A DNA stretch of 64,000 bases from Candidatus Omnitrophota bacterium (GCA_028716965.1 JAQUOV010000001.1:6448-70447); one strand, 5' to 3'. Shown: positions 11,310-29,655, numbered from the stretch's first letter. Notes: generated by a model not told the origin, from the letters alone. A program made the numbers and translations.

Positions 11310-11869
11310 CTCAATACATTGCTAATTAAATCCGGAGAAAAACCCCTGCGCATCAAATAAGCATATACCCGTGCCTTTGCCTTAAGCGGCTCTATATTTT
11401 TTAGTTTAGCCAACCTTTGTTCGGCTAATTGTTTGACTATACCGGTTTCGTCGTAATCCTCTTTTGCCTGAACAAAGGCTTCTTCAATAACCTGTTTATC
11501 CAACCCCTTCTGCATCAATTCCTGCTTTATCCTTCTTAAACCAAATGGCCGCTTAAGCCGGCTGGAAACCCAACCCCTGGCAAAAACGCGGTCATCAATA
11601 AAATGTTTATCCTTTAAGAAGTTTACCGTCTCCTGGGATAGCTCTTCGGAGAAACCTTTCTGCCTTAACCTCTGCGCCAGCTCCTTTTCGCTGCGCAGGC
11701 GAAACTTAAGCAGCAGAAAAGCATATTCTTTGGCTTTTTCCGGGTTATGGCTTCGGCTATCGGATGCCGAACCATGGCCTTCTGGCTTATGGCTTCGGCT
11801 ATCGGATGCCGAACCATGGCCTTCTGGCTTATTTGGCGAGGTCAAACTTTTTACGCGCTTCTTTTTCAA
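11303..11869 (-). CDS. recX: Regulatory protein RecX, N-terminus carrying two in-frame repeat units
   Basis: RecX-like three-helix repeats ([20 protein letters not shown]...). It overlaps the recA 3' end by 41 nt. The N-terminus contains a tandem [13 protein letters not shown] x2 encoded by an exact 2x42-nt DNA repeat. Confidence 0.75.
11745..11828. repeat. Repeat family C: exact tandem 2x42-nt unit (TTATGGCTTCGGCTATCGGATGCCGAACCATGGCCTTCTGGC) inside recX
   Basis: Two identical 42-nt units seen directly. Each has an internal inverted repeat TTCGGC..GCCGAA, and each encodes [14 protein letters not shown] in the recX frame. Confidence 0.85.
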
Positions 11870-12854
11870 TATCTTCCTGTAATTTCGGGTTTTCTTTTAG
11901 GAATTTAATTGCCGCTTCCCGCCCCTGGCCCAATTTTTTGTCTTCAAAAGAAAGCCATGTCCCGGCCTTAGCAATTATTCCTAAGCTTACCGAAGCATCA
12001 ATCACTGCGCCAATCTTAGCAATCCCTTCGTTATGCATAATATCAAACTCTGCCTCACGAAAAGGCGGAGCGACTTTATTCTTGACTACCCTTACCCTCA
12101 CATGGTTACCGATAACCTTATCCCCTTCTTTCAAATAAGCAATCCTGCGCACATCCAACCTTACTGATGAATAAAACTTAAGTGCCCTGCCGCCGGGAGT
12201 TGTCTCAGGAGAACCAAACATTACCCCGATCTTTTCCCTTAACTGGTTAATGAAAATTACCGTGGTGCGCGATTTGCTGATTGAGCCGGTTAACTTACGT
12301 AAGGCCTGTGACATTAAGCGCGCCTGAAGCCCCATATGCGAATCCCCCATCTCGCCTTCTATCTCCGCCCGCGGGGTCAAGGCCGCCACCGAATCAATCA
12401 CCACTAAATCTACGGCATTGGAACGCACTAAAGTTTCCGCTATCTCCAAAGCCTGCTCTCCGGTGTCCGGCTGAGAGATTAGAAGGTCATCTAAATTTAA
12501 ACCGATTATCTTGGCATAAGTAGGGTCAAAGGCATGTTCTGCGTCAATAAACGCCGCCACCCCGCCTTTTTTCTGGATCTCTCTTATCGCCGTCAAAGTT
12601 AAGGTAGTTTTCCCGGAAGCCTCCGGACCAAATATTTCAATTACCCTTCCGCGGGGCAGGCCGCCAACACCCAAAGCAAGGTCTAATGTAAGTGCGCCTG
12701 TTGATATAGTCTCAACATTGGCCTTGGTATGCGCACCCAGCTTCATAATCGAGCCCTTGCCAAATTGCTTCTCTATCTGTGCCAGCGCTAATTCCAGCGC
12801 CTTTTGCCGGTCCGCAATATCTCTTGTTTCTTCCTTCCTTTTTTCAACTGCCAT
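11829..12854 (-). CDS. recA: Recombinase A
   Basis: [12 protein letters not shown] Walker A, ...IDAEHAFD..., full RecA core. Confidence 0.95.
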
Positions 12855-12912
12855 ATGACCCTCCGCTTTTTAAATTTAGGTAAATATTATAACCCTCTCC
12901 CCCTACTACTGT

Positions 12913-12961
12913 CAAACAATAAAAATTCCTCCTTTCTTCTCCAATAGACGTAGAAAGGAGG
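12913..12961 (-). terminator. Rho-independent terminator downstream of the 13034..14152 gene
   Basis: Perfect 10-bp inverted repeat CCTCCTTTCT...AGAAAGGAGG (12928-12961). On the minus strand it is followed by a U-rich tract, AAUUUUUAUUGUUUG. Confidence 0.6.
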
Positions 12962-13033
12962 AAAAATCTAACTAAAATGATTCTAACCCTGTTTCTATAC
13001 TGACCCCGTTTCCCAGGCCTCAAGGCCGGGCCG

Positions 13034-14152
13034 TCAATGCATTGTTACCCAAACAATAACCTTACCATCTCCTTCGGATAATGGCTCCAATGCCTTACCT
13101 AATATCATGCCGGGACTTAATTTTCCAGGGTCGGCTTTCATGGCATGCCCGGGTTTACTGGAAGTAACCAGTAAATCACCAATTTCAATCGGCCCATTTT
13201 CCGTTGTAACTTTGCAAATAACTCGCCCCACCAAGGCAATGGGTTTTTTATCCTTCACTTTATTAATCTTTTCAGGAGGCGTATCTCCGCCGATTATCAT
13301 GGAAGCAGTGTTTGGGTCTGAAACAATGCCCGCCACAAGGCTATCATAGGCCTTTTGGCTGCGTTTCATCCTAATCCTTGAGTCTTTATCTATACAAACC
13401 ACATCCCCGGGCTCTAAATTGTCTTCCTCCTTAACAGGAGTGACTTCCGCTAAGTCAAAACGTACTGCGCCATTGGCATAAAAAGGACCGACGGCAAAAG
13501 GAGTATAGATAACACTAGATCCCTCAAAGAGTCTCAACCATGGATCAGCTCCAACCGTAGGCACTCTGTTTAAGCGCCATGGATTAGTGCCGTCCATAGC
13601 AGACCCCATTATGTTCCCCACAACATGTAATTGCGCTGACGGAGTAGATGTCCCGACCCCAAGGCTGCCTGCAAAATATCCATTTCCCATTCCAGAGACC
13701 CAGAAAGTCTGTGTGGCGCCGCTATTTGTCCTGAAATCCAATAATTTAAAAGCGTTATTTCCGGCTCTGGTTGTCTGGGCATATAATAAAACATTGGCAA
13801 ATGCAGGGGCAGTATTTTTAATAATAAAAGTTGAATTTCCCGCTCCGCTGCCGGTAGCTTGTATTGTAGCATCAACTGAGGCTATATCTAACTGCGCAAC
13901 AGGCGCATTCATCCCGATGCCTACTTTTCCTTTAATCCAAACCTGCCCGGGGGTACTAGGCACATCAGCAAAAGTAAGGGAGCCACTATTATCATTGTCT
14001 CCCACGCCAAATTTATCTGTCTGCAAAGCATTATAACTTCCGTAAGGAGAAGGATAATAAGTGGTGATTGTAATATCTTCCGCAAAAACAACCGATGAAG
14101 AAAGGATCAAAACAGGGAAAAATAACAAAATATTCTTTAACAATTTAAGCAT
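13034..14152 (-). CDS. Secreted hypothetical protein with tail-fibre-like repeats and a conserved C-terminal domain
   Basis: Signal peptide. The repeats GKVGIGMNAPVAQLDI and GSLGVGTSTPSAQLHVVG resemble tail-fibre-domain repeats. The C-terminal segment (VAGIVSDP...PIALVGRVICKVTTENGPIEIGDLLVTSSKPGHAMKA) resembles tail-fibre C-terminal domains. Confidence 0.4.
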   Translation of the reverse strand: MLKLLKNILLFFPVLILSSSVVFAEDITITTYYPSPYGSYNALQTDKFGVGDNDNSGSLTFADVPSTPGQVWIKGKVGIGMNAPVAQLDIASVDATIQATGSGAGNSTFIIKNTAPAFANVLLYAQTTRAGNNAFKLLDFRTNSGATQTFWVSGMGNGYFAGSLGVGTSTPSAQLHVVGNIMGSAMDGTNPWRLNRVPTVGADPWLRLFEGSSVIYTPFAVGPFYANGAVRFDLAEVTPVKEEDNLEPGDVVCIDKDSRIRMKRSQKAYDSLVAGIVSDPNTASMIIGGDTPPEKINKVKDKKPIALVGRVICKVTTENGPIEIGDLLVTSSKPGHAMKADPGKLSPGMILGKALEPLSEGDGKVIVWVTMH

Positions 14153-14259
14153 CTCTGCCTCCTATTTTTATGGATTAATTATATAGGAATGGTGGAAAAT
14201 GTCAACTAATTAACGCTCTTTCTTGACTTTACTTAAAAATGTGCTAAACTTAAAACATT

Positions 14260-15426
14260 ATGGAAGAGATGAATAAGTTAAAAATCGAACTTGAGCGTAC
14301 GAAAATTGAACTCGGGATTCTTTATGAGATCTCCAATGCCATGCGCACCACCTTAAAGCTGGATGAGATCCTCTATATCATCCTTACCGGGGTAACTGCG
14401 CACACCGGGCTTGGATTCAACCGGGCCATGCTTTTTCTGGTCAATGAGAAAGAAAGAATTATTGAGGGCAAGATGGGGATCGGCCCGGAAAGCGGCGAAG
14501 AAGCTAACGCCGCCTGGACCAAAATTGAAGAAGAAAAAATGGACCTGGATGATTTGATCAACGCCTTCAAGAACTCAAGCTCGGTATTAGAATCCGGGTT
14601 TAACCGCCAGGTCAGGAGCTTAAAAGTATCTATGTACGATAAAAATGAGAACCCCCTGTCTTTGGCTGTCCTGGAAGGCATGCCTTTACATTTAACCAGC
14701 CAGGCCATTCAAAAATACAGCAATTCTCCCGTGATAAAAATGCTGGAAAGCAGCGAACTCTTGCTTATCCCGTTAAAGGCAAAGGACCGGGTAAACGGAA
14801 TAATTGTAGCGGATAATTTTATCACTAATGACCCAATTACCAAAGACGATATCCGCATGCTCACCATGCTGGCTAACCAGGCAGGATTGGCGATTGAAAA
14901 CTCCCAGCTTTTTGAATTAACCGTTGAGCGCGCCCACTCGGATTACCTGACTAATCTCTGGAACCATGGATATTTTCAGTACCTTCTGCAAACAGAGATG
15001 GAAAAAGCCAAGGCGACCAAAAACAAGCTTAGTTTAGTTACAATAGATATAGATAATTTTAAGGTTTATAACGACACTCTTGGACATCAGATAGGAGACA
15101 AGATACTAAAAGATTTAGCGCAACTCTTGCGTAATCAATCACGCAAAATGGACCATGTCTGCCGTTACGGAGGGGAAGAATTCACCATCATCCTGCCTCA
15201 AACCGACCAAAAAGAAGCTTACATGATCGCTGAACGCCTTAGAGTGGATATCCAAAAATACCCCTTCTTAAACGAAGGGATCTTTCCTAATAAGATGCTG
15301 ACGGTCAGCCTTGGGATAGCCACCTTTCCCGAGAATGGACAGCTGCCTGCGGACTTAATTACCTCTTCGGATAAATCACTCTATAAAGCCAAAAGCCAGG
15401 GCAGAAACACCACCTGCTGCAGTTAA
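14260..15426 (+). CDS. GAF-domain diguanylate cyclase (GGDEF)
   Basis: RYGGEEFTIILP (GGEEF active site) and an N-terminal GAF-like region. It is the only plus-strand gene in the window. Confidence 0.8.
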   Translation: MEEMNKLKIELERTKIELGILYEISNAMRTTLKLDEILYIILTGVTAHTGLGFNRAMLFLVNEKERIIEGKMGIGPESGEEANAAWTKIEEEKMDLDDLINAFKNSSSVLESGFNRQVRSLKVSMYDKNENPLSLAVLEGMPLHLTSQAIQKYSNSPVIKMLESSELLLIPLKAKDRVNGIIVADNFITNDPITKDDIRMLTMLANQAGLAIENSQLFELTVERAHSDYLTNLWNHGYFQYLLQTEMEKAKATKNKLSLVTIDIDNFKVYNDTLGHQIGDKILKDLAQLLRNQSRKMDHVCRYGGEEFTIILPQTDQKEAYMIAERLRVDIQKYPFLNEGIFPNKMLTVSLGIATFPENGQLPADLITSSDKSLYKAKSQGRNTTCCS

Positions 15427-15428
15427 AT

Positions 15429-18400
15429 TTACGCCGCTACCGGCTGTTCCTGCTTCTCTTTATCCTGCGACAATTTTACCGAAACTATTTTTGAGACTCC
15501 CGATTGCTGCATGGTAATACCATACATGATATTGGCGTTAACAATAGTCTTCTTGTTATGAGTAATGACAATAAACTGCGAAGTCTTGGAAAACTCCTGC
15601 AAAACCCTGGAGAACCTGTCTACGTTGGCTTCATCAAGGGCTGCGTCAATCTCATCCAGGATGCAGAACGGCGAAGGCTTAACCTTGAAAATAGCAAAGA
15701 TCAGCGCGATCGCCGACATACTTTTTTCTCCGCCGCTTAATAAGAGAACATTCTGTAGTTTCTTTCCCGGAGGCCGGCAGATAATCTCAATCCCCGATTC
15801 AAGCGGGTCATGCTCGTCAACTAAAAACAACTGCGCGTCCCCGCCGTTAAAAAGCAGCCGGAAATAATTCTTAAACTCCACCTTCACTTTCTCAAAGGTC
15901 TCCATAAACATCTGTTTTGTCGTACGGTTGATCTTCAAGATCGCCTGATGCAATGACTCCTTGGCAGCTAAAAGGTCATTCTGCTGTTGGATAAGGAAAT
16001 CATAACGCTGTTTTAACTCATCATACTCTTCAATCGCCACCAGGTTGACCGTGCCGTAGGAATCCAGTTTTCTCTTTAATTCCCCTATTGCAGCCGATAA
16101 GGACTGCTGGTCTGATTCTTTGTTTGTATCCTCCAGAATATCCAAATCAATTTTATAGGCAGAGCTCATCCTCTCTTTTATAGCCGCATATCGGTAATCC
16201 AAGTCCTTATCCTGCATCTCCAAATCATGCAATTGGCTTTTTATCTGTTCCAGGTGCTTGCGGTCGGCTTCAATTCTCTTTACTACCCCCACCGTGCTGC
16301 TGGAGACTTCATTATATTTAAACTCAACCTCAAGAAGGCTGCTTTTCTTTTCTTTAATCTGGACCTCTGATTCATTAATTTTATTCTGGCAATCAATGAC
16401 CTCAAGCCTTAAACCCTGCTGGCGCTCTTTAGATTCACTGATTTGCTTCTCAATATTCTCAAGGCTGGCCCTATCCTGCGCGTAAGTTTCATCAAGGATC
16501 TTTAAGGTTGCCGCGTCAGAACTAAAACGCTTATTTAAAGCCTCAATCTCCGTCCTGGTCTGGGTAATTAAAACCAACACCTCTTCCCGTGCCTTGCTGT
16601 TTAAAGCGATACTATCCTCTTCCTGCACGATTGAATCCTGCTTAAGCCTCTCTTCATTGTTTAAGTTGGAAAGTTTAGCCTGGGCAGCGGATAAGTTTTG
16701 TTCAATCGCGGAGATCTCCCGGGCCACCTCTGTCAACTCCATAACAACCACATCCTCTTCTTCCTTTATTTTATTAAACTGCTCTAAGGTCGTAGCATAT
16801 CCGGCTTCTTTATTGGCTAAAGTAATTTCGTGATTACGCAGCTCCTGCTCCAAATCCGCCGACATTTTACTTAATTCCGCAATACAAGTTTGGCGCAATA
16901 CCCTCCTGTTCTTTAGCTCTCCGAGGCCCTCTTCAATCTTGGCAATCTTATCACTTATCTTTTGCGTATCCAATTCAATAGGCTTGGCCTCTCCGCTTAT
17001 CCTAAAAGCAGCTGAATCCACAGCCGCGGTTTGCCCTCCCATAGGCAAAGCCGCTTCCGCCAGGCGCGACCGGTCTTCATCATTTACCGATGACTGGCCC
17101 TGGATCTTCACCACCAGCCCGGTGACACTCTCCTTGGGCAGTTTGTCCAGGTAGATCACCGCGTTAAGCGATTCCCCTATATCATCATACTTATTCTTCA
17201 GCTTCTCCAGAAACTCTTTATGTGAAACCAAGGTGAGCTTTTCATTTTCAAGCCTGGTAATCTCCTGGTTAATCCCGTTTAAATTTAACCCCTCTTGCTC
17301 AAGGCTTGCCTTTACATTAGCGATCTTCTGCCTGAACTCATCCACTAATTCCCGCGTATTGGAGAGCTCCCGGGTAACCCTGTTTAAGGCCTCCTCGGAA
17401 ATCACCTTTTCTTCATAGACCTTTGCCTTTTCAATCTCCAGCCTCTTTTTGCGCGCCAGGAATACCTGGTGCCTGGAATTGAATTCACTGACTTCATTAT
17501 GAGTATTTGAGATCCTGGTTTCTAGGTCCAGGATCATCTTTTTGCTTTCGGAAATGATCTCCAACGAACTTTTAATAGAAGAGTTGATCTTATTAATTTC
17601 CTCTTCCTTCTGCTTTAAGACGGATTCCTTATCTTCTATATTATGCTTGAGACTGGAATACTCAAGACGGATTTTTTCCAGCTTCTCCTCATCCTGAAGA
17701 AGTTTGCTCTTCGCCTGCTCAATCTGGGCCTCTAAAACCTGCATATTTTCGGAAAGCTCGGCGATACGCTGTTGGTTAAAAGCGATATGCTCATTATTGC
17801 GCACCAGGCTATTCTCCAAATTAAGTATCTGGCTGCGGCTGGACATCAAACCTTCTTCCAGCGTTTTTAATTCCGACTGCCGGTTGGCGATCTTAGCCTC
17901 CATCTCCGTAACCGCTTCAGCTAACGTTAACTCCTCCTTCCTTGATTCTGACAGCTGTCCGGAAATTTCATCCCTCTGCCTAAGGAGATTATTCTTATCT
18001 ATGACTGCCAAGTCAATTTCTTTTAATTTTAATTCCTCAAAAACCTCCTTGTATCTGCGCGCTTTATTTGCCTGGCGCTCAAGGGAGCCGATCTGCCGTT
18101 TGACCTCGGATACAATATCGTTTACACGCAAGAGATTTTGTTCTGTCTCCTCAAGCCTGCGCGTAGTTTCCCTTTTCTGGGCTTTATATTTGCTTATGCC
18201 GCTTGCCTCATCAAACACCATGCGCCGGTCTTCCGGACGGGAGCTTAATACCAAATCTATTTTTCCCTGCGCGATAATGGAATAACTCTCTGCGCCTATA
18301 CCCGTACCTAACAATAAATCCAATATATCTTTAAGCCGCACCGTGGCCTTATTCAGCAGATATTCGCTCTCTCCGCTTCTAAAAAGCCTGCGCGTAATCA

Positions 18401-18695
18401 GCACCTCCGGATGGTCAACATTAAAAAAGCGGCTGGTATTGTCAAAAGCAAGGCTGACCTCGGCCATACTCAATGGCTCTTTATTGTCGGCGCCGTTAAA
18501 GATAACATCCAGCATCTCTGAGCCGCGCAGCGACTTTGCGGACTGTTCACCGAGTACCCAGCGTATGGAATCAAAGATATTTGATTTCCCGCAGCCGTTA
18601 GGCCCGACTACCGCCGTAATCCCCGGCTCAAAGTTCAGCACCGTCTTATCGCAAAACGATTTAAAACCTAAAAGCTCAAGTCTTTTAAAATACAT
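15429..18695 (-). CDS. smc: Chromosome partition protein Smc
   Basis: MYFKRLELLGFKSF...GPNGCGKSN N-terminus, long coiled coils, C-terminal LSGGEKS...ILDEIDAALD. The ORF-track start at 18737 adds 14 aa (MEWPVYPFWIRRKN) encoded by a repeat element, so the true start is taken as the ATG at 18695. Confidence 0.9.
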   Translation of the reverse strand: MYFKRLELLGFKSFCDKTVLNFEPGITAVVGPNGCGKSNIFDSIRWVLGEQSAKSLRGSEMLDVIFNGADNKEPLSMAEVSLAFDNTSRFFNVDHPEVLITRRLFRSGESEYLLNKATVRLKDILDLLLGTGIGAESYSIIAQGKIDLVLSSRPEDRRMVFDEASGISKYKAQKRETTRRLEETEQNLLRVNDIVSEVKRQIGSLERQANKARRYKEVFEELKLKEIDLAVIDKNNLLRQRDEISGQLSESRKEELTLAEAVTEMEAKIANRQSELKTLEEGLMSSRSQILNLENSLVRNNEHIAFNQQRIAELSENMQVLEAQIEQAKSKLLQDEEKLEKIRLEYSSLKHNIEDKESVLKQKEEEINKINSSIKSSLEIISESKKMILDLETRISNTHNEVSEFNSRHQVFLARKKRLEIEKAKVYEEKVISEEALNRVTRELSNTRELVDEFRQKIANVKASLEQEGLNLNGINQEITRLENEKLTLVSHKEFLEKLKNKYDDIGESLNAVIYLDKLPKESVTGLVVKIQGQSSVNDEDRSRLAEAALPMGGQTAAVDSAAFRISGEAKPIELDTQKISDKIAKIEEGLGELKNRRVLRQTCIAELSKMSADLEQELRNHEITLANKEAGYATTLEQFNKIKEEEDVVVMELTEVAREISAIEQNLSAAQAKLSNLNNEERLKQDSIVQEEDSIALNSKAREEVLVLITQTRTEIEALNKRFSSDAATLKILDETYAQDRASLENIEKQISESKERQQGLRLEVIDCQNKINESEVQIKEKKSSLLEVEFKYNEVSSSTVGVVKRIEADRKHLEQIKSQLHDLEMQDKDLDYRYAAIKERMSSAYKIDLDILEDTNKESDQQSLSAAIGELKRKLDSYGTVNLVAIEEYDELKQRYDFLIQQQNDLLAAKESLHQAILKINRTTKQMFMETFEKVKVEFKNYFRLLFNGGDAQLFLVDEHDPLESGIEIICRPPGKKLQNVLLLSGGEKSMSAIALIFAIFKVKPSPFCILDEIDAALDEANVDRFSRVLQEFSKTSQFIVITHNKKTIVNANIMYGITMQQSGVSKIVSVKLSQDKEKQEQPVAA

Positions 18696-18710
18696 ATTTT
18701 TTCTCCTTAT

Positions 18711-19020: not shown

Positions 19021-19037
19021 AAATCTATCTCCTGCTC

Positions 19038-19072
19038 GTCATTGCGAGGGCGTGTACTGCCCGAGGCAATCT
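19038..19072. repeat. Repeat family A (short form) GTCATTGCGAGGGC-N-GCCCGAGGCAATCT palindromic element
   Basis: Same element occurs at 41163-41198, 42585-42619 and 46303-46413, with a long form at 35883-35970. Confidence 0.7.
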
Positions 19073-19173
19073 GGGAAACATTATAAATAAGTAAGCTTAT
19101 CTTGTCAAGGAAAATATTAACATTCTTTAACATATAGCTGAAATAGTATTCTAACCAATGCAAATAACTGCAG

Positions 19174-19191: not shown

Positions 19192-19253
19192 CTCTATGTT
19201 AATCAATTAGTTCTGTAAGAAATGTTTTTGAGAATATACCTTAGATAAGCTTA

Positions 19254-20540
19254 TTATTTTCGGAGAGTTGTTTTGAAGGCTTGGGTTAAGGCCGGGACAA
19301 CCTGAAACAGGTCACCTACAATTCCATAAGTGGCTAACTTGAAAATCGGCGCTTCGGGGTCTTTGTTTATGGCAATAATAATCTTTGAAGATTGCATGCC
19401 GACAAGATGCTGTATCTGTCCGGATATCCCGCAGGCAATATAGATCTTTGGAGCTACTGTCCTTCCGGTTTGCCCGACCTGATGTGAATAAGGCATCCAG
19501 CCGTTGTCTACTGCCGCGCGGCTTGAGCCGACTGCGGCTCCCAGGACATGCGCTAATTCTTCCAGTAATTTAAAATTCTCCGCTCCTCCCATACCGCGTC
19601 CGCCGGAAACAATAATATCAGCCTCGGACAAGTTCACCGTAGATTCAATCTCTTCAATTATATCCAAAAGCTTTGTGCGCGAAACATAAAGAGATCTGTC
19701 AAAACTTTCCTTTATAATCCTGCCTTTACGTTTCTTGTCCGCCGGCATAGGCGCAAACACCTTATGCCGGACTGTCGCCATCTGCGGGCGGTAATTCGGG
19801 GAAATAATTGTCGCCATGATATTGCCGCCGAAAGCCGGCCGCGTCTGTAAGAGTATCTTTTTGTCAGGTTCAATATCTAATCCCGTGCAATCTGCAGTTA
19901 AGCCGGCTTTAATATTTATCGCAACGCGTGAAATTAAAGACCTTCCGATATTTGTCGCCCCGCATAAAAGGATTTCGGGTTTATATTTTTTTACCAGCTC
20001 AACCAAAATATTAGTATATGGTTCATCCTGGAAATTCGCTAGCGTCGGGTCCTCTACCAGGTATATATTATCCGCTCCGCAAAAGATCAACTCATCCAGC
20101 TGGTCCTCTAATTTATTACCGATCAAAACCCCGCTCACCTGGCAATTTAATTTCCTGGCCAGCTCCTGGGCCTTGCCTAATAATTCATACGAAACCGACT
20201 GCACTCTCCCGTTCTTCTGCTCAATAAATACCCAAATCCCCTTATAATCTTTTATATCCGGCAGGTCGCATTTAGCTGGAGTCTTTTCTATCAAGATTGC
20301 CTTAAATTTACAGGCTTCTTTACAGGCCCCACAAAGCGTACACTTATTTAAATCAATTACCGCTTTCTTATGGCTTCGGCTATGGCTTTGGCTAAAGGAA
20401 GCCGAACCATCGCCCTCTGGCTTATCGGAGGCCGAGCCACTGCTGTCTAGCTTGTCCATTATACGGATAGCATCAAACGGGCATGCCTTTACGCAAAGCG
20501 TACAACCCGTGCACTTTTCAATAATGATCGATATAGGCAT
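19254..20540 (-). CDS. etfA: Electron transfer flavoprotein alpha subunit with N-terminal 2x[4Fe-4S] ferredoxin domain (CarE/FixB-like)
   Basis: CTGCTLCVKACPF and CTLCGACKEACKF cysteine clusters, then an Etf alpha FAD domain (…GISGQIQHLVGM…). An in-frame repeat insertion (SGSASDKPEGDGSASFSQSHSRSH) lies between the two Cys clusters. Confidence 0.85.
   Translation of the reverse strand: MPISIIIEKCTGCTLCVKACPFDAIRIMDKLDSSGSASDKPEGDGSASFSQSHSRSHKKAVIDLNKCTLCGACKEACKFKAILIEKTPAKCDLPDIKDYKGIWVFIEQKNGRVQSVSYELLGKAQELARKLNCQVSGVLIGNKLEDQLDELIFCGADNIYLVEDPTLANFQDEPYTNILVELVKKYKPEILLCGATNIGRSLISRVAINIKAGLTADCTGLDIEPDKKILLQTRPAFGGNIMATIISPNYRPQMATVRHKVFAPMPADKKRKGRIIKESFDRSLYVSRTKLLDIIEEIESTVNLSEADIIVSGGRGMGGAENFKLLEELAHVLGAAVGSSRAAVDNGWMPYSHQVGQTGRTVAPKIYIACGISGQIQHLVGMQSSKIIIAINKDPEAPIFKLATYGIVGDLFQVVPALTQAFKTTLRK
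20368..20445. repeat. Repeat family C copy inside etfA (in frame)
   Basis: CTTATGGCTTCGGCTATGGCTTTGGCTAAAGGAAGCCGAACCATCGCCCTCTGGCTTATCGGAGGCCGAGCC. Homologous to the recX and pgk copies and translated in the same frame (PEGxGSASxSxSH). Confidence 0.75.
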
Positions 20541-20542
20541 AC

Positions 20543-21325: not shown

Positions 21326-21421
21326 CTCTTAATCCTGTCTGATTATTTCACTTACTCAAACTTACTTACTATTACTTATTCTTATTTACTATTACCTATT
21401 CTTGCCTCTGATTCTCCCTAC

Positions 21422-21440
21422 ATTCTACATACTACATACT
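21422..21440. promoter_or_regulatory. Conserved intergenic motif F (ATTCTACATACTACATACT)
   Basis: Related copies at 7302-7326 and 23232-23257. Each lies just upstream of an internal gene start and its Shine-Dalgarno sequence. In the gene sense it reads GTAGTAGGTAGAAT-like (TAGAAT, a -10-like hexamer). Confidence 0.35.
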
Positions 21441-21443
21441 GCC

Positions 21444-22595
21444 TTACTTCGCCATCTCTTTAATCAACTGCAAAGCGATTATATTACGCTGCACCTGGTT
21501 TGTCCCTTCGTAAATCTGAGTAATCTTGGCATCGCGCACATATTTCTCAATCGGATAATCTTTCATATAGCCATACCCGCCGAATAACTGCAAGGCATCC
21601 ACCGTGACCTTCATCGCGACATCCGAAGCATACATCTTAGCCATTGCTGATTCCTTTGCCACATCTTTAATCCCCGCATCAACCATCCTGGCCGTAGAAT
21701 ATACTAACCCGCGCGCTGCCTCCACCTCCGTAGCCATATCTGCGAGCATCCACTGGACTCCCTGGAAACTTGAGATAGACTTGCCGAACTGCACCCTCTC
21801 GCGCACATATTTTACCGCCAACTCCAGCGCTCCCTGGGCAATACCCAAAGCCTGGGCTGCTACTCCCGGGCGCGACATATCAAAAGTTTTCATCGTTACG
21901 ATAAAACCCATCCCTTCTTTGGAAAGAAGGTTTTTGGCGGGGATCTTGCAGTCCGTAAAAACCAACTCGCGTGTGCTGGACGCCCGGATCCCAAACTTAT
22001 CCTCTTTTTTGCCGAAAGTAAAACCGGGGATACCTTTTTCAACAATAAAAGCGGAAGCCCCGCGGGCTCCTTTTGACTTATTAGTCATAGCAATCACGAC
22101 ATAAGTCTCCGCATCTCCGCCGTTGGTAATAAAATGCTTCAGGCCGTTTAAAATATAATAATCGCCTTCTTTTTTAGCGGTAGTCTTAATACCTGAAGCA
22201 TCTGATCCTGCCTCCGGCTCGGTAATCGCAAATGCCGCTACTTTCTTCCCCTTTGCCAGGTCCGGCAGGTATTTTTTCTTCTGTTCATCATCCCCGAATA
22301 ACACAATCGGGAATGTCCCCAGGGCGCTTGCCGCGTAGCAAACGGCAATTCCTCCGCAGGCGCGGGAAAACTCCTCAGTGGCAAGGCATAAATTAAAAAC
22401 GCTGGTGGCAAAGCCGCCGTACTCCTCAGGGATAAACAATCCGAACATATCGGATTCTGCCATAACCTTTAAAACATCCCAGGGGTATTCTTCGCTAATA
22501 TCATATTTAGCCGCAACAGGCCGGATCTTGTCTTCGGCAATCTTATGCGCCAAATCCTTAATCATCTTCTGTTCATCAGTCAACAAATAATCCAT
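21444..22595 (-). CDS. bcd: Acyl-CoA dehydrogenase (butyryl-CoA dehydrogenase-like)
   Basis: 383 aa ACAD fold (…YEGTNQVQRNIIA…). Adjacent to etfBA. Confidence 0.85.
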   Translation of the reverse strand: MDYLLTDEQKMIKDLAHKIAEDKIRPVAAKYDISEEYPWDVLKVMAESDMFGLFIPEEYGGFATSVFNLCLATEEFSRACGGIAVCYAASALGTFPIVLFGDDEQKKKYLPDLAKGKKVAAFAITEPEAGSDASGIKTTAKKEGDYYILNGLKHFITNGGDAETYVVIAMTNKSKGARGASAFIVEKGIPGFTFGKKEDKFGIRASSTRELVFTDCKIPAKNLLSKEGMGFIVTMKTFDMSRPGVAAQALGIAQGALELAVKYVRERVQFGKSISSFQGVQWMLADMATEVEAARGLVYSTARMVDAGIKDVAKESAMAKMYASDVAMKVTVDALQLFGGYGYMKDYPIEKYVRDAKITQIYEGTNQVQRNIIALQLIKEMAK

Positions 22596-22619
22596 CTCTC
22601 CTCCTCTTTATTTTACCCT

Positions 22620-22717
22620 AGGGACGTTTCTGATCCCAAAGCAAGACCTGTCCCCGACCCAAAGCTAGAAGTGTCCCCATTATAGCATTCTCCCAATCAA
22701 GACACTCCTTAGCCTTA
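22620..22717. repeat. Repeat family D (degenerate copy): AGGGACGTTTCT...CAAAGC-AGA-CTGTCCCC
   Basis: Shares AGGGACGTTTCT, CAAAGC(G/A)AGA(A/C)CTGTCCCC with the nested palindrome at 37423-37499. Confidence 0.55.
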
Positions 22718-22768
22718 ACCGGGGACGCAAACTGCCAAGTTTAAAAATTGTACCATATAATTTAGATT

Positions 22769-23218
22769 TTACAAGATTTTTAACAGGGCAACCTCTTGGC
22801 AATCGGGGAATTTACAGCAGTTAATGCACTCCGCCCATATCTTATGCGGCAAAGCTGCGTGCTTAATCTTTCTAAAACCTAACTTTCTAAAAAATTCCGG
22901 TTTATAGGTAAGTACAAAAATCTTCTTTGCCCCCATAACCTTTGCTTCCGCCAGGCAAGCCGTAACCAGGTCTTTTCCAAGGCCTTTGCCTTGTTTATTT
23001 TTAGCAACTGCCAAAGATTTAATCTCGGCTAAATCATCCCAGGAAATATGCAAGGCCGCGCAGCCTGCCAGCTTACCCCTATCCTCATACACCCAGAAAT
23101 CCCTTATATTCTCATAAAGCTCGTTGAGCGACCTGGGCAGCATCACATCCTGTTTCGCAAAACAGCCAATCAACTCCTGAATCTTTTTTATATCTTCTAT
23201 TTTTGCTTTCCTGATCAT
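22769..23218 (-). CDS. GNAT family N-acetyltransferase (N-acetylglutamate synthase-like short form)
   Basis: 149 aa; acetyl-CoA motif QGKGLGKDLV. A C-terminal Cys cluster (CINCCKFPDC) is unusual. Confidence 0.65.
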   Translation of the reverse strand: MIRKAKIEDIKKIQELIGCFAKQDVMLPRSLNELYENIRDFWVYEDRGKLAGCAALHISWDDLAEIKSLAVAKNKQGKGLGKDLVTACLAEAKVMGAKKIFVLTYKPEFFRKLGFRKIKHAALPHKIWAECINCCKFPDCQEVALLKIL

Positions 23219-23231
23219 TGCCTTTCCCTGT

Positions 23232-23257
23232 ATTCTACCTACTACATTCTACATACT
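23232..23257. promoter_or_regulatory. Conserved intergenic motif F copy
   Basis: ATTCTACCTACTACATTCTACATACT, 14-40 nt upstream of the GNAT start. Confidence 0.35.
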
Positions 23258-23270
23258 CGCTATAAAGAAA

Positions 23271-25096: not shown

Positions 25097-25133
25097 ATTA
25101 TATAAAATTGCCCATCAATTGCAATAGATATAA

Positions 25134-25898
25134 TTATAGCGCCCGCTCGGGGCGATCAGCGCGGCTTGACAACTTTTCCATCCACAAACAAAATATGGTG
25201 GACAAATACCCCGCCCCTATTTCTTTTATCCCCCACTTGGAAACACCTTTTTTCCTCCCATACCAATTGACCGGCACAACGCACCATTTATGCCCCCTGA
25301 TAATAGCCTTTAAAGGCATTTCTACCGTAAGATTGAAGCTGCCGGATATAAGCGGAGAGATACACTCTATGGTTCTCCTGGAATAACATTTAAAGGCATT
25401 GGTGGTATCATTGTAAGGCAAGCAAAAAATTACCTGGATAAAAAGATTACCCAGCCTGTTTAATATAAGTTTATGCCATGGATAATGCACAATCCTGGAT
25501 TGTTTAGAAAAGCGTGTCCCAAACACGCAATCATACCCTTCAGCAATCTTATCATAATATTTAATCAGGTCTTCCGGTTCGTCCGATGAATCCGCCATAA
25601 GTATGGCCGCTAAATTGCCCTTAAAAACCTCAAGCCCGCGCCTTACAGCGCACCCATACCCCGGAGCATATATGTTTTTTACCAGGTTGACCCTTCTGTC
25701 GTGTTCGGCTATGCGGCTTAATACTTCAACCGTATTATCATTACTATAATCATCAACTACAATAATTTCAAAAGGTACGGCTGCTTTATCCAAAACCTGA
25801 ATCGCCCTATTCAAGGTATTGGCCAAATTGCCAGCTTCATTTCTGGAAGGTATCACTATAGAAAATAATAATTTTGATTTATCCCTATAATTTTGCAT
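25134..25898 (-). CDS. Glycosyltransferase family 2 (soluble, DPM1-like)
   Basis: FSIVIPSRNEAGNL...IIVVDDYSNDNT DxD region; no TM. Confidence 0.7.
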   Translation of the reverse strand: MQNYRDKSKLLFSIVIPSRNEAGNLANTLNRAIQVLDKAAVPFEIIVVDDYSNDNTVEVLSRIAEHDRRVNLVKNIYAPGYGCAVRRGLEVFKGNLAAILMADSSDEPEDLIKYYDKIAEGYDCVFGTRFSKQSRIVHYPWHKLILNRLGNLFIQVIFCLPYNDTTNAFKCYSRRTIECISPLISGSFNLTVEMPLKAIIRGHKWCVVPVNWYGRKKGVSKWGIKEIGAGYLSTIFCLWMEKLSSRADRPERAL

Positions 25899-25936
25899 GG
25901 ATTAAATTACTAAAGCTGGCTCAAATAATCAATATT

Positions 25937-27082
25937 TTACTCTATCTTATGAATCAAAGGTAAACAAAGAAAACTGGTCAAGGCGGATAAAACAATCAGC
26001 CATTTCAAACCGATAAGCGGAAGCAGGAACGCTCCTGACAAATTACCGGCTGTGCCGGAAAGGTTATTTATGCTGCACAACAAAGCAAAAGAGGTAGCCT
26101 CAAGCCCTTTTATTGAATGGCGGGCCATAAAATCCATCACCATCAGGAATATAAACATCCCCAGGAAACTGTATACCACATCATAAGCGACAGCAGTTAC
26201 AGGTGTATAATACAGGTAACTTAAAGTAGTCAGCGCACCCAGGAATACTGAAAAATACAGCCACTTCTTAATATCTATTCTCTGGCTGAATTTATAATAC
26301 AATAGCGAACCTGCGACACCGAATAAGGTACTGATGGTCCCTAAAGTCCCGATCCACATCTTACCCCACTTAAAAGTGTCCCGTTGTATAAAAAATAACG
26401 GCGTGCCAAAAGAGGGGGAATATTTATATAAGAAAATAAACAAACCGATAATCAATATCTTTTTATCGCTAAAAAGCCTCTTCAGGTCCGACAACAAAGA
26501 CGCGTACTTTTTCTCAAGCCCCTCCTCTTGATAAAAATAAGCCGGCAGCCCTACTAACAAATAAACCGGGACAAGGCATAGAAAACCAACCTTGTAATCC
26601 CATTTCTCGGCGATAAAAGCCCCTCCTATACCGGTAAACAACCCCGCCACTAAAATCGAAACCCACTGGATACTCTGGATCTTGCCGGTAGCCCGGTATT
26701 TCTTGCCTTCCACGCACATTATACCGTCAACCGCTACATCACGGAAAGCCGCGTTAGAAGAAGTAATCACAAGCAAGACTACCAGGAAAACAAGCGGCAT
26801 CTGCATCAAGCCCAAGAATAAAACAAAAACTATATCTAAAAACAAAGAAATGAATACCCAAACCCTTTTCGTAAAGAGATGGTCTATCACATAACCGATT
26901 AAGGGTTTGACCATCCAGGCAAAAGTAGTGATACTGCCGAGGATCATTATCTTTTCCGGGGAAAAATGTAAAGTTTCCTTAAGATAATAGAATAACCCTT
27001 GAGCGGGTAACCCTTCTATGCCTTGAGTAAAATAGACCGCGCTGCTTAAGGCAAATACCCAAAAAAGCTTTTTATTCTTCAT
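25937..27082 (-). CDS. Multi-pass membrane transporter (MFS/BT1 folate-biopterin transporter-like)
   Basis: About 12 TM. The ORF-track start at 27115 (MERYIKRLLIN) is encoded by the conserved upstream element E, so the ATG at 27082 (MKNKKLFWVF) is preferred. Confidence 0.5.
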   Translation of the reverse strand: MKNKKLFWVFALSSAVYFTQGIEGLPAQGLFYYLKETLHFSPEKIMILGSITTFAWMVKPLIGYVIDHLFTKRVWVFISLFLDIVFVLFLGLMQMPLVFLVVLLVITSSNAAFRDVAVDGIMCVEGKKYRATGKIQSIQWVSILVAGLFTGIGGAFIAEKWDYKVGFLCLVPVYLLVGLPAYFYQEEGLEKKYASLLSDLKRLFSDKKILIIGLFIFLYKYSPSFGTPLFFIQRDTFKWGKMWIGTLGTISTLFGVAGSLLYYKFSQRIDIKKWLYFSVFLGALTTLSYLYYTPVTAVAYDVVYSFLGMFIFLMVMDFMARHSIKGLEATSFALLCSINNLSGTAGNLSGAFLLPLIGLKWLIVLSALTSFLCLPLIHKIE

Positions 27083-27091
27083 GTTGATTAA

Positions 27092-27143
27092 AAGACGTTT
27101 TATGTATCTCTCCATATATCTGGAGGTTACAAAACAATTATTT
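27092..27143. promoter_or_regulatory. Conserved upstream element E: AAGACGTTTTATGTATCTCT-N-GGTTACAAAACAATTATTT
   Basis: About 50 nt, nearly identical to 11257-11309 upstream of alaS. Rearranged partial copies occur at 33028-33050 and 39981-40050. Confidence 0.5.
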
Positions 27144-27212
27144 CTTGCTAAATCAAATAGTAAAGGCTACCAGTAGACTGGTAGCCTTTAAAAGTATAAA
27201 TAGACATATCTA

Positions 27213-27665
27213 TTACTCAGCTTTTCCCGCCTCCGGATTAGCTTTTTCTGCAGGAGATGCTATTTTAGATGCTTCTACTTTCGGCGCCTCTGCTTTTGCA
27301 GCTTCCATTTTTAAAACCCCTGGTTTAGCTGTTTCTGCCTTAACCGGCTCTGTTTTCGCATCCCCTGGTTTAGCTGTCCCTGCTTTTGCCGCTTCTGTTT
27401 TTACCGGAACAGGGGGCTTGGCATTACGCATCAACGACTTACTTTGCTTAACGGATAATACCGCCAAACTCAAACAAGTCAGGAAAAATACTACAGACAT
27501 GATTGTTGTCGTTCGCGTGAGAAAAACGCTGGTCTTTGTTCCGAACATCGACTCAACACCGGCAAAGCTTTCCACAAGACCTGCCCCCCTCCCACGCTGG
27601 ATTAAAACCAAGGTGATTAAAACCAAACAGGCAGTCACATGGATTACGATTATTAACGTCATCAT
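27213..27665 (-). CDS. secG: Preprotein translocase subunit SecG with a low-complexity Ala/Lys/Pro/Glu-rich C-terminal tail
   Basis: N-terminus LIQRGRGAGLVESFAGVESMFGTKTSVFLTRTT matches the SecG signature. It lies immediately downstream of tpiA, the conserved tpiA-secG arrangement. Confidence 0.7.
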   Translation of the reverse strand: MMTLIIVIHVTACLVLITLVLIQRGRGAGLVESFAGVESMFGTKTSVFLTRTTTIMSVVFFLTCLSLAVLSVKQSKSLMRNAKPPVPVKTEAAKAGTAKPGDAKTEPVKAETAKPGVLKMEAAKAEAPKVEASKIASPAEKANPEAGKAE

Positions 27666-28435
27666 TTTACAACCTCGCTTGCTTTAGTTACTATCGCGCT
27701 AAAAGAATCTACCTTCAGGCTTGCTCCCCCAACCAGGGCCCCGTCCACATCCGGCCTCTCCATTAACTGCATGATATTCTCGGGTTTTACGCTTCCGCCA
27801 TACTGGATCCTAATGTTATCCGATACATCCTGGCCGTAATTTTTCTTCAATAGGTCACGGATAAATTTATGCACCTCTTGCGCCTGATCCGGGGTAGCGG
27901 TTTTACCCGTACCGATTGCCCAGACCGGCTCATAAGCAATTATTAAATTCGCTATATCGGAAACATCAACGCCTGCCAACCCATTATTGATATGGTCTTC
28001 AACAACCTTAAATGTTTTATTGGCTTCTCTTTCCTGCAGGTTCTCCCCTACGCAAACAATAGGGATAATCCCGGACTTAAGCGCGGCCTTGATTTTCTTA
28101 TTTACGGTCTCATTGCTTTCGCCAAAAAACTGCCTGCGTTCGGAATGCCCGATAATTGCGTATTGGCAGCCGGCATCCTTTATCATAAGAGGAGAAACCT
28201 CTCCGGTAAAAGCACCTTCCTCCTGCCAATAGATATCCTGCGCGCCTAAACCGATCTCTGTTTCCGTTAAAACTTCCGCTACTTCGCTTAAAGCGGTAAA
28301 TGCCGGGCACAATACCACATCCACTGCCGCAAAATCCAGCTTAAAGAATTCACGCTTTAACCCATTGGCAAGTTCAATTGCCTCCGTGATCGTCTTATAC
28401 ATCTTCCAGTTTCCGGCAATAATTGTTTTTCTCAT
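27662..28435 (-). CDS. tpiA: Triosephosphate isomerase
   Basis: AGNWKMYK..., IIGHSERR, AYEPVWAIGTG. Confidence 0.9.
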   Translation of the reverse strand: MRKTIIAGNWKMYKTITEAIELANGLKREFFKLDFAAVDVVLCPAFTALSEVAEVLTETEIGLGAQDIYWQEEGAFTGEVSPLMIKDAGCQYAIIGHSERRQFFGESNETVNKKIKAALKSGIIPIVCVGENLQEREANKTFKVVEDHINNGLAGVDVSDIANLIIAYEPVWAIGTGKTATPDQAQEVHKFIRDLLKKNYGQDVSDNIRIQYGGSVKPENIMQLMERPDVDGALVGGASLKVDSFSAIVTKASEVVK

Positions 28436-29655
28436 CTGTGGTTTTGGCTAGCGGAGGCCAAACCACGGCCCTCTGGCCTGTCCGTAAGCGCGGCAATACC
28501 GGGTAAGGTCTTACCCTCCAAAAACTCCAGGCTTGCCCCGCCCCCAGTTGAAATATGTGACATTTTATCTTCCAGTTTGAATTTTGCAATAGCCGCCGCA
28601 GTATCCCCACCGCCAATAATTGAAATGCAAGCTAACCTACCGATAAATTCAGCTAACTCTTGCGTGCCCTTGCTGAAAGCATCCATTTCAAATATCCCCA
28701 TCGGGCCGTTCCAAACAATGGTTTTGGCAGATTTTAATTTCTCTTCAAACAATTTAACCGTCTTTGGCCCGATATCCACGGCAATCTTGCCGTCAGGTAT
28801 ATTCTCGCCTGCTATTTCAACCGCAGCATTTGCATCTATATTATCAACCACTATGTTATCAATGGGCAAAAGGATCTCTTTATTCAACTGTTTGGCTTTA
28901 TCTAAAGTTGATTTTGCTAAATCCAGTTTCTCTTTTTCCAGCTTGGAGTTACCGATCTGTTTACCTTCAGCCTTAAGGAATGTATATGCCATTCCGCCGC
29001 CAACAATAATTGCGTCACACTTAGGCAGCAGGTTCTCAATAACCCCGATCTTATCCGAAACTTTGGCCCCGCCTAAAATAACTACAAAGGGCTTCTGCGG
29101 ATCCTTAACTGCGTCGCCTAAATACTTGATCTCCTTCTCTAAAAGCAGCCCTGCGGCTGATTTTAAAAAATGTGCCACCCCTTCTGTTGAGGCATGAGCG
29201 CGGTGCGCCGTGCCAAAAGCATCATTGATGAATACATCCCCTAAAGATGCAAGCTGTTTGGAAAAGTTAGCATCGTTGGCTTCTTCTTCAGGATGATATC
29301 TTAAATTCTCCAGTAAAACCACCCTTGCTTTTGAATTATCAATATCCCGTTTAATATTTACTCCTGTACAATCATCCAGGAACAGCACATCCTGCCCCAA
29401 GAGCTCTTTTAAACGTCCGGCTACCGGTTTAAGGCTGTATTTAGCAACCGGCTTTCCGTCCGGCCGGCCCAAGTGGCTCATCAACACTAATTTCTTAGCG
29501 CCATGCTCTAAGATATATTTCAAAGTAGGCAAGGTTGCCCGTATGCGCGTATCATCGGTAATATTCAGGCTGGCATCCTGCGGAACATTAAAATCCGCAC
29601 GCACCAATACCGTTTTATCTTTTAAATCAACATCTTTTAAAGTCAGCTTCGCCAT
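28432..29655 (-). CDS. pgk: Phosphoglycerate kinase with repeat-derived C-terminal extension
   Basis: MAKLTLKDVDLKDKTVLVRADFNVP... The ATG at 29655 is preferred because GGAGG lies 8 nt upstream; the track start at 29670 is a GTG. The C-terminus ...LPGIAALTDRPEGRGLASASQNHR is extended by a family C repeat unit up to the tpiA start. Confidence 0.95.
   Translation of the reverse strand: MAKLTLKDVDLKDKTVLVRADFNVPQDASLNITDDTRIRATLPTLKYILEHGAKKLVLMSHLGRPDGKPVAKYSLKPVAGRLKELLGQDVLFLDDCTGVNIKRDIDNSKARVVLLENLRYHPEEEANDANFSKQLASLGDVFINDAFGTAHRAHASTEGVAHFLKSAAGLLLEKEIKYLGDAVKDPQKPFVVILGGAKVSDKIGVIENLLPKCDAIIVGGGMAYTFLKAEGKQIGNSKLEKEKLDLAKSTLDKAKQLNKEILLPIDNIVVDNIDANAAVEIAGENIPDGKIAVDIGPKTVKLFEEKLKSAKTIVWNGPMGIFEMDAFSKGTQELAEFIGRLACISIIGGGDTAAAIAKFKLEDKMSHISTGGGASLEFLEGKTLPGIAALTDRPEGRGLASASQNHR
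28436..28478. repeat. Repeat family C copy at the pgk 3' end (in frame)
   Basis: TGGCTAGCGGAGGCCAAACCACGGCCCTCTGGCC encodes PEGRGLASASQNHR in the same frame as the recX and etfA copies. Confidence 0.7.

Follow-up and report, generated by a model that had tools for sequence, protein, structure and literature searches.

How does the same short palindromic segment come to be translated, in frame, within several unrelated housekeeping genes? The question is raised by a stretch of 64,000 nucleotides (the window, to which all coordinates below refer) from a contig of 276,780 bp in a metagenome-assembled genome (MAG) of Candidatus Omnitrophota, in which copies of a 42-nucleotide unit lie within recX, etfA and pgk. 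A preliminary description took these copies for a family of in-frame mobile palindromes akin to the Rickettsia palindromic elements (RPEs), and the existence of empty sites and the wide dispersal of the unit support this view. The finding is real, that interpretation is essentially right, and the family is far larger than the three copies suggested. We consider it likely that the unit represents a family of very small, non-autonomous DNA elements, mobile or recently mobile and specific to Omnitrophota. Such an element would spread at the DNA level, and the host would tolerate its copies where an extra loop is harmless, that is, at termini, in linkers and in surface turns.

The most regular copies lie in recX (11303-11869, minus strand; assigned from the list of open reading frames (ORFs) and from Pfam RecX domains in homologues), the start of which overlaps the end of recA. 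Here the 42-mer TTATGGCTTCGGCTATCGGATGCCGAACCATGGCCTTCTGGC is repeated exactly and head to tail at 11745-11786 and 11787-11828, placing two identical units in the N-terminal tail of RecX (11745-11828, minus strand; covariance model score 70.5 bits), and no such repeat is expected by chance (none in 100 shuffles). The pair begins directly after the recA stop codon (11829-11831), which itself forms part of the flanking ATA(A) motif. We considered whether these copies might occupy a spacer between the recA stop codon and a recX that starts further downstream, and found this untenable: the units lie inside the coding sequence, because no in-frame start codon is found between them and the conserved domain and because empty-site orthologues retain the identical upstream MKKKR..SPN tail. 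The NCBI gene calls likewise take in the units, both for RecX (MDD5560520.1, 188 residues) and for Pgk (MDD5560536.1, 407 residues).

Diverged matches to the 42-mer are present at 20380-20421 (85% identical) and 28436-28477 (73% identical). The units in recX, etfA and pgk are all on the coding (minus) strand and are translated as PEG(H/D/R)G(S/L)AS..S(R/Q)(S/N)H. In pgk (28432-29670, minus strand, from the ORF list, orthologues and NCBI annotation; annotated start probably at 29655) a single unit at the 3' end of the gene (28436-28478, minus strand; 66.9 bits) appends PEGRGLASASQNHR to the protein and extends the ORF as far as the tpiA start, with which it forms an ATGA overlap. The tandem pair in recX and the single terminal unit in pgk had both been recognized at the outset, and exact matching in the one case and the covariance model and orthologue endings in the other confirm them. 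The etfA gene (19254-20540, minus strand; Pfam Fer4, ETF and ETF_alpha) encodes an N-terminal 2x[4Fe-4S] ferredoxin domain fused to ETF alpha. The site and the divergence of its copy were correctly described, but the supposed 1.5 units are two complete units, one nested in the hairpin loop of the other. The inner, younger unit (20381-20422, minus strand; 64.5 bits) reads KPEGDGSASFSQSH and lies after the ..CCGATA of the outer unit's loop, dividing the latter into a 5' part (20423-20451, minus strand) reading LDSSGSASD and a 3' part (20368-20380, minus strand) reading SRSHK. When joined, these halves give a complete unit, GCTAGACAGCAGTGGCTCGGCCTCCGATAGCCGAAGCCATAAG, which is uninterrupted in the closest syntenic relative, L119; the nested arrangement is thus CTAGACAGCAGTGGCTCGGCCTCCGATA / AGCC...GCCATA / GCCGAAGCCATAAG. 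In a weak AlphaFold2 model of EtfA (mean predicted local distance difference test score (pLDDT) 59) the resulting 28-residue insert is coil with pLDDT <50 and replaces the turn between strands 25-29 and 58-62. The three genes first named are joined by a fourth, smc (15429-18695, minus strand; ORF list and relatives), in which a diverged copy runs in the opposite orientation, antisense to the gene (17002-17060, plus strand; 32.4 bits, E=1.3e-6 with the covariance model, E=0.025 with nhmmer). This copy lies near residue 542, presumably in the SMC hinge region, reads ..AEAALPMGGQTAAV.. and carries the stem variant TTTGCC/GGCAAA and GCGG/CCGC.

The units are insertions, because the lengths of close orthologues (84-92% identical) step by exactly 14 residues and because empty sites exist. 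Among the 120 best orthologues collected for each protein (80-100% identical to the window protein in the EtfA set), EtfA occurs with 400 residues in 88 cases, 414 in 15, 428 in 8 and 442 in 1, and the empty site ...CPFDAIRIMDK^KAVIDLHKC... (here and below the caret marks the junction) is seen in 88 of the 120. Pgk has 393, 407 or 421 residues; the shortest form, which ends in ...AALTDR/K and is empty, accounts for 78 of the 120 orthologues, with one unit present in about 20 and two units in 1. In RecX the N-terminal tail preceding the LLLKFRLRS motif measures 24 residues in 33 of the 120 orthologues, 38 in 29 and 52 in 15. That the segments might be ancestral, non-repeat sequence is contradicted by most close orthologues, in which the site is empty.

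Two syntenic relatives show the same differences at the level of individual sites. The proteins of L119 (JBAZUE010000001.1) are 76-98% identical to those of the window, one divergent hypothetical gene being set aside, and those of L118 (JAQURC010000003.1) are 68-94% identical. Aligned gene by gene with L119, the window has an exact 42-nucleotide insertion in pgk, where the L119 site is empty, an exact 42-nucleotide (14-residue) insertion in etfA, where L119 lacks the inner unit and has the outer one, and an insertion of 14 residues in smc that the DNA alignment resolves only fuzzily. Window and L119 have the recX tandem pair in common, its second unit carrying a 24-nucleotide deletion in L119, and the tandem units of one genome are more alike than are the orthologous units of the two. 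In L118 the etfA, pgk and smc sites are all empty, and the contig stops before recA and recX. In a neighbour-joining tree of EtfA, which is weak evidence given that the proteins are very similar, filled and empty sites are interspersed, a pattern that would be consistent with repeated gain or loss and on which no count of independent insertions rests.

Where is the unit inserted? All five window junctions fit a single rule, in which 42 nucleotides are added beside an AYA triplet and the empty site retains one AYA. The junctions are AAT A^AC CCG in recX, with the recA TAA stop within the motif, GAY A^AR AAA for the outer etfA unit, the loop sequence CCGATA^GCC for the inner etfA unit and GAC A^GA TGA in pgk, for which the 393-residue ending of the orthologues is precisely the empty site predicted. 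The consensus of the 5' flank, A(-3) Y(-2) A(-1) R(0), is a repeat of the unit's own 3' end, CCAYAAR. Because the AYA motif recurs both at the 3' end of the unit and in its loop (GATAG), head-to-tail arrays and nested copies are to be expected, and both occur: arrays reach 3 units (L044), and insertion after the ..CCGAYA loop of another unit is found in at least four host genes, encoding EtfA, CheW, a PD-(D/E)XK nuclease and an RRM protein. The arrays, the exact tandem pair in recX and the greater likeness of same-genome tandem units than of orthologous ones might suggest a local minisatellite, generated by replication slippage and spread by gene conversion without transposition machinery. Slippage cannot, however, seed more than 60 unrelated genes, nor can it put a complete unit into the loop of another, and it leaves the AYA junction of isolated copies, and the flank coupling described below, unexplained; we consider such an origin highly improbable.

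A scan of one genome per species with the exact pattern TGGYTTYGGCTANNGGANGCCRAACCA identified the family in at least 117 stretches from 68 assemblies, far beyond the three copies that might have been all there were. Nearly all of the genomes are from Omnitrophota: among the matches listed, approximately 100 loci are labelled Omnitrophota or Omnitrophica, the remainder being labelled 'uncultured Planctomycetales/Planctomycetia' or unclassified MAGs, together with one short Kerfeldbacteria-labelled contig; the environments of the matches listed include groundwater, lakes, the Black Sea, marine sediment and deep mines. The unit pattern is absent from the viral contigs scanned, and the whole window gives no Rfam match at the gathering threshold. 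A search with the recX tandem peptide against 1.84 billion representative proteins proved unusable as a census, since among its 10 matches the strongest and one weaker were unrelated repeat proteins. Density is of the order of a few tens of sites per Mb (4 in the 64 kb of the window, 2 in 21 kb of L119 and 0 in 17 kb of L118).

A profile search of the loci found yielded 173 units, 171 of which could be placed relative to the longest spanning ORF. Of these, 111 (about 65%) lie inside an ORF of at least 100 residues, 10 lie within 10 codons of a stop codon, 20 lie ambiguously within 30 codons of an upstream stop, and 30 are probably intergenic. The hosts are real and mostly essential genes, as judged by a Pfam scan of 50 host ORFs. 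They encode, among others, Asd, pyruvate kinase, enolase, ribonucleotide reductase, glycogen synthase, sulfite reductase, hybrid-cluster protein, the beta subunit of acetyl-CoA synthase/CO dehydrogenase (ACS/CODH), ribosomal protein L25, LeuRS, ArgRS, a class II aminoacyl-tRNA synthetase, IF-2 and Obg, together with proteins as diverse as SecG, SecA, CheW, FtsK, Lnt, RodZ, RpoN, LarC, UvrD and Wzy. Each copy had been thought to sit at a terminus or in a surface loop. This is mostly so: read by eye from the Pfam coordinates, about two thirds are at termini or between domain envelopes, with about one third inside an envelope (about 9 of 28 hosts).

At the variable columns, copies from different loci of a single genome agree better than do copies of different genomes (identity 0.627 against 0.567, with 0 of 500 permutations reaching the observed difference), and the isolate Yes70-23 has both its own loop, TTCCTTTAGCC, and its own stem variant, TTTCGTC/AACGAAA. 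The pattern indicates that amplification or homogenisation took place after the divergence of species.

Several local forms of the family have features of their own. The CAKKQB01 assembly (Hainich Omni-XXVI; loci L008, L035, L080 and L109) contains a subfamily with a conserved extra flank, ACTTTTGCC(A/G)CAAGGC.ATGGTTCGGC..., the copies of which lie mostly just upstream of or between genes and may belong to a longer composite element. A conserved small protein of approximately 160-180 residues (its L037 member having no Pfam match) carries an antisense unit at the same place in eight genomes, reading ..KYMKIIWLYTPKPEG-MALAKGSQTTDLC-PVELTWIQHFEMDEK.. (L003, L006, L020, L021, L026, L037, L054, L062); this shared site may be an old insertion or a hot spot. 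The C-terminal tail of SecG (window secG, 27213-27665) is of low complexity, rich in K, A, E, T and P, and differs from its counterparts in L119 and L118 by several short indels, and the SecG tail of L088 carries two 42-nucleotide units. Variants of 43 nucleotides, with an extra base in the loop or near the smaller hairpin described below, are almost exclusively intergenic-like (L084, L101, L083, L092, L041, L116, L024, L040, L035).

The manner in which host genes read the unit bears directly on the level at which it spreads. Of the 111 copies in ORFs, 76 (68%) read (K)PEGSGLASDSQSH(K), 16 read MALAIGSQTTALW (for example in RpoN, LarC and UvrD), 9 read QKAVVWLPIAKA, 7 read YGFGYRKPNHGL (for example in Wzy) and 3 read LWLWLKEAKPLPSG; the sixth frame contains TAG and is used by none. 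A single frame had been thought universal, which is true of the recX, etfA and pgk sites and not of smc or of the family, in which four other frames and orientations occur. With respect to orientation, 85 in-ORF copies are sense and 26 antisense, and two spermidine-synthase-like ORFs (L117, L039) hold units of both orientations. Relative to an expectation based on the frequency of AYA/TRT triplets by codon phase in the window genes, the main frame is 2.9-fold enriched (76 observed, 26 expected) and all other frames are depleted (p=1e-25), the stop-containing frame being found 0 times where 8.7 are expected. Lengths that are not a multiple of three are seen in 12 of the 30 intergenic-like copies as against 2 of the 111 in genes (p=7e-8). 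The main-frame peptide, KPEGSGLASDSQSH, is rich in Gly, Ser, Asp and His and is hydrophilic. The frame enrichment, the absence of the stop-containing frame and the multiple-of-three lengths in genes point to insertion that would be blind to coding and be followed by purifying selection, the survivors being in frame, free of stops and hydrophilic.

Might the peptide itself, as a flexible Ser/Gly-rich linker or a short linear motif, be the object of selection in proteins? Its hydrophilic character, its modelling as low-confidence coil in EtfA and the single frame shared by 68% of in-gene copies would all be in keeping with such a module. These observations have to be reconciled, however, with the alternative readings QKAVVWLPIAKA, YGFGYRKPNHGL, MALAIGSQTTALW and LWLWLKEAKPLPSG of the same DNA in genes such as those for RpoN, LarC, Wzy and UvrD, with the 30 of 171 copies that look intergenic, and with the covariation of paired nucleotide columns across codons, by which, for example, S/L changes together with R/Q. 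We give this explanation almost no credence. Because the unit is found in five frames, in both orientations and between genes, it is on this evidence a nucleotide-level element rather than a peptide module.

The unit has the anatomy R-GCC-AGAA-GGC-N-R-TGGTTYGGC-nTCCGATA-GCCRAAGCC-AYA, 42 nucleotides or 14 codons in all, and folds into a mini-hairpin of 3-4 bp (GCC-AGAA-GGC) followed by a bulged hairpin of 10 bp (RTGGTTYGGC...GCCRAA-G-CCAY) with an 8-nucleotide loop. The alignment of 140 distinct copies has 95.2% of its cells paired, and both sides have changed in 9 of 13 pairs, but most bases of the large stem were preset in the search pattern, so that the paired fraction is inflated there and only the free columns carry weight, a point that counts against our interpretation. 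Cells in which both partners have changed number 116, compared with 19.5+-12 after shuffling (0 of 500 shuffles reach the observed value) and with 11-35 when the partner column is slid. The compensatory variants include TTCGGC/GCCGAA, TTTGGC/GCCAAA, TTTGCC/GGCAAA and TGCGGC/GCCGCA in the large stem and GCC/GGC, GTT/AAC, GAC/GTC and GCT/AGC in the mini-stem. EtfA inserts that were identified purely through protein homology combine S with R, or L with Q, in 16 of 17 cases, and the recX units of the window and L119 differ by a change from C-G to T-A. Judging from these free columns, both hairpins are maintained by compensatory changes.

Such maintenance raises the alternative that the unit is a nucleic-acid signal selected by the host, whether an RNA stem-loop that influences how the mRNA is processed, translated or stabilised, or a DNA site recognised by a protein of the nucleoid, of recombination or of uptake, its coding copies being tolerated. 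A consensus kept across 68 species, compensatory changes that occur even at orthologous sites (the recX and EtfA pairs just described) and a position 13 that is almost invariably T would be appropriate for a functional signal, as would an excess of G.U over A.C pairs on the sense strand (45 against 15) and the orientation of intergenic copies between co-directional genes, 13 of which run in the same direction and 4 in the opposite one (p=0.049). It is less readily reconciled with discrete insertions whose presence is patchy among close relatives, and because of that patchiness no site depends on the unit. Likewise, units are found nested and in arrays, roughly one in four in-ORF copies is antisense to the host gene, no Rfam family is matched, and DNA uptake sequences arise in place by point mutation, unlike a 42-nucleotide insertion. 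A signal selected by the host is in our judgement unlikely.

The unit is also coupled to its flank. In 98 isolated copies, flank position -2 and internal position 12 form the combinations C-G (49 copies) and T-A (41 copies), with 8 others; their mutual information is 0.84 bit, whereas any other column reaches at most 0.28. Positions 12 and 40 are likewise complementary (A-T 36, G-C 27, G-T 16, A-C 2), and positions 0 and 11 pair as G-C in 37. The internal RTGG (12-15) can thus pair with the CCAY of the left flank, giving a left hairpin CCAY-A-RGCC-AGAA-GGCN-RTGG, or alternatively with the CCAY of the right end, giving the large hairpin. Both AYA triplets are complementary to the same internal base, and one of the two must come from the target. 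Guide-type pairing rests on one variable pair, positions 13-15 being invariant; a scan of a metagenome collection for units with a base other than T at position 13 returned three stretches, all uncompensated, so that such variants are rare in a collection in which the T13 units were left uncounted. A nested copy of the L068 type favours the left triplet as the one travelling with the element, and the coupling of -2 with 12 fits either model.

The HUH transposases of the IS200/IS605 family recognise their cleavage and target sites on single-stranded DNA by pairing with an internal guide. Because both AYA triplets are here complementary to one internal base, as in IS200/IS605 site recognition, we infer by analogy a single-strand mechanism of the HUH type. 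The element would probably be handled as a single strand, an enzyme acting in trans, of IS200/IS605-type HUH character or like the REP-associated tyrosine transposases (RAYTs) and encoded elsewhere in the genome, would cut it and paste it beside AYA, and the internal RTGG would act like an IS200/IS605 guide for the cleavage and target sites. The orientation bias of the intergenic copies lends weak support to a single-strand mechanism, as does the coincidence of the element's sense strand with the G-rich gene strand at 3 of the 4 window sites. More specifically, and only tentatively, the unit might be a minimal, still active single-strand transposon of 14 codons that uses one guide (R12-T13-G14-G15) for both its right end and its insertion site (CCAY-A), and whose enzyme is conserved across Omnitrophota. 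If so, it would generate variation in the surface loops of core proteins throughout the phylum, and few mobile elements that have a readable targeting code would be as small.

Several further observations weigh against the reading of the unit as a mobile element. The junctions fit either the left or the right AYA triplet as the one derived from the target. Approximate probe sequences for the IS200 and IS608 TnpA proteins, compared with all ORFs of at least 70 residues in the window and 119 loci (about 1 Mb), returned no transposase or mobilising gene at E<0.1; nor was a RAYT gene flanked by units seen in the same material, which is a weak test. A consensus that is near-identical throughout a phylum is unusual for a purely selfish element. 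The patchy presence at individual sites could stem from re-insertion at hot spots or from precise loss, and a function of the hairpin at the RNA level would likewise be compatible with the orientation bias between genes and with the surplus of G.U over A.C pairs. Finally, the case is built on sequence comparisons, in which no transposition event is directly seen.

The window holds further repeats. A second, unrelated palindromic family beginning CGTCATTGCGAGG... (families D5, D7 and D8) is present at 35883-35970, 46326-46413, 19039-19073, 41137-41198, 42585-42619 and 46301-46338, and resembles the CGTC-tagged repetitive extragenic palindromic sequences (REPs) of PMC3733652. Its 88-nucleotide copy at 35883-35970 lies inside the priA ORF (34423-36408), where it reads ..LAMTRKTRLASSGRTRHSPGHFALGRFFCLLRLAMTY.., the other copies being intergenic. 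Extra mini-insertions beside or inside the 42-nucleotide unit, read as KGLPAGRQ/KGLSANRQA, ACLPARQGL, STRPYRTGRYAPLRS and GSAEAHGLPS, are carried by EtfA proteins P0075 and P0017, by loci L045 and L048 (5866-5928) and by RecX proteins P0242, P0287, P0294, P0254, P0251, P0259, P0247, P0326, P0324 and P0317; several families of tiny, mutually nesting elements seem to be present in the genomes concerned. A direct repeat of 55 nucleotides, AT-rich and of the form TACAAGACG.TTTATGTATCTC...GGTTACAAAACAATTATTT (family D1), occurs at 11254-11308, 27089-27143, 32996-33050, 39944-39998 and 40004-40058, in spacers beside the starts of minus-strand genes such as the alaS/recX spacer, and may be a shared promoter or leader. 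An intergenic repeat, CTAAATTCTACCTACTACATACTATCTAC.. (families D3 and D13), lies upstream of several minus-strand genes (7275-7338, 21418-21458, 23205-23268, 34389-34429). The tandem GalT/HIT-like paralogues at 30928-31929 and 31931-32953 (Pfam) share a 98-nucleotide stretch that is 77% identical (family D4).

Selfish palindromes that lie in frame within genes have so far rested on Rickettsia and a handful of intragenic REPs. The Omnitrophota family is an independent instance of the phenomenon in an uncultivated phylum; it spans a wider phylogenetic range, and its unit is far smaller and sharply defined. Its natural sites in essential genes (for SecA, IF-2, FtsK, aminoacyl-tRNA synthetases and glycolytic enzymes) range from empty through single and tandem to nested, which makes it possible to address how the target is chosen (the AYA rule and the coupling of -2 with 12), what proteins are able to tolerate, and whether such elements build up in host-dependent bacteria of small population size. 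The coupling between flank and guide is a mechanistic clue that deserves direct test. In practical terms, the unit lengthens proteins, creates spurious similarity between unrelated ones, and can mislead gene callers and alignments of Omnitrophota MAGs.

How, then, does the unit relate to systems already described? Literature searches on palindromic or repetitive elements of Omnitrophota found no earlier description. Omnitrophota, like Rickettsia, are believed to be host-dependent in lifestyle. The closest parallel is with the RPEs (families RPE-1 to RPE-10), which are of approximately 100-150 bp and lie in frame in unrelated genes of R. conorii (PMC10969869). Both are dispersed palindromes within unrelated, apparently functional housekeeping genes, both have one preferred frame and add an extra peptide segment, and for neither is a linked transposase known (PMC10969869, PMC3733652). 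The RPEs, however, are not only longer but also confined to Rickettsia, with about half of the first family in ORFs, whereas the phylum-wide Omnitrophota unit is set apart by its 42 nucleotides, its two hairpins, the AYA rule, nesting in its own loop and head-to-tail arrays, a distinction drawn from the respective descriptions. RPE-4 and RPE-6 end in CGTC (PMC3733652), a tag that the Omnitrophota unit lacks.

REPs, among them the REPINs mobilised by RAYT transposases, are defined by a conserved GTAG (or CGTC) tetranucleotide at one end. Some lie inside genes, where they encode 20-30 residues; such intragenic REPs, catalogued by Di Nocera et al., reach their highest numbers in Opitutus terrae and R. 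conorii, and O. terrae, a relative from the Planctomycetes-Verrucomicrobia-Chlamydiae (PVC) group, is a notable example (PMC3733652). The Omnitrophota unit resembles REPs in being a short imperfect palindrome (20-40 nucleotides in REPs) of many copies, and both are thought to be recognised as single-strand hairpins. Its consensus, CcACAAGCCAGAAGGCnGTGGTTTGGCTTCCGATAGCCAAAGCCATAA, has neither a GTAG nor a CGTC tag on either strand, it is mostly intragenic (111 of 171 units in ORFs) whereas REPs are mostly extragenic, and its arrays run head to tail whereas those of REPs are inverted dimers. Because of its length of 42 nucleotides, its lack of GTAG and CGTC tags, its mostly intragenic position, its head-to-tail arrays and its own junction rule, the Omnitrophota unit belongs to neither the RPE nor the REP group.

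Other small repeats are further removed. Miniature inverted-repeat transposable elements differ in that the Omnitrophota unit has no terminal inverted repeats and no parent insertion sequence is seen; its ends form a direct AYA...AYA repeat of 3-5 nucleotides, which may be the target motif and not a duplication. DNA uptake signals occur about once per kb in about equal orientations, whereas the Omnitrophota copies are 42-nucleotide insertions, 85 sense against 26 antisense, at a few tens per Mb. In heterocyst-forming cyanobacteria, very small dispersed repeats (Elhai et al. 2008) are reportedly also below 50 nucleotides, insertion-like, found inside genes and other repeats, and not linked to any known transposase; their sequences and phylum are different. 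Like IS200/IS605 elements, which transpose by single-strand 'peel and paste', and their non-autonomous, palindrome-associated derivatives, the unit lacks terminal inverted repeats, bears a hairpin in a subterminal position and is inserted beside a short specific sequence with no clear duplication; its flank and end are complementary to a short internal segment at the foot of the hairpin, and a strand bias is suggested. The analogy is mechanistic only, and differs in that a single 42-nucleotide unit would here serve as both the left and the right end.

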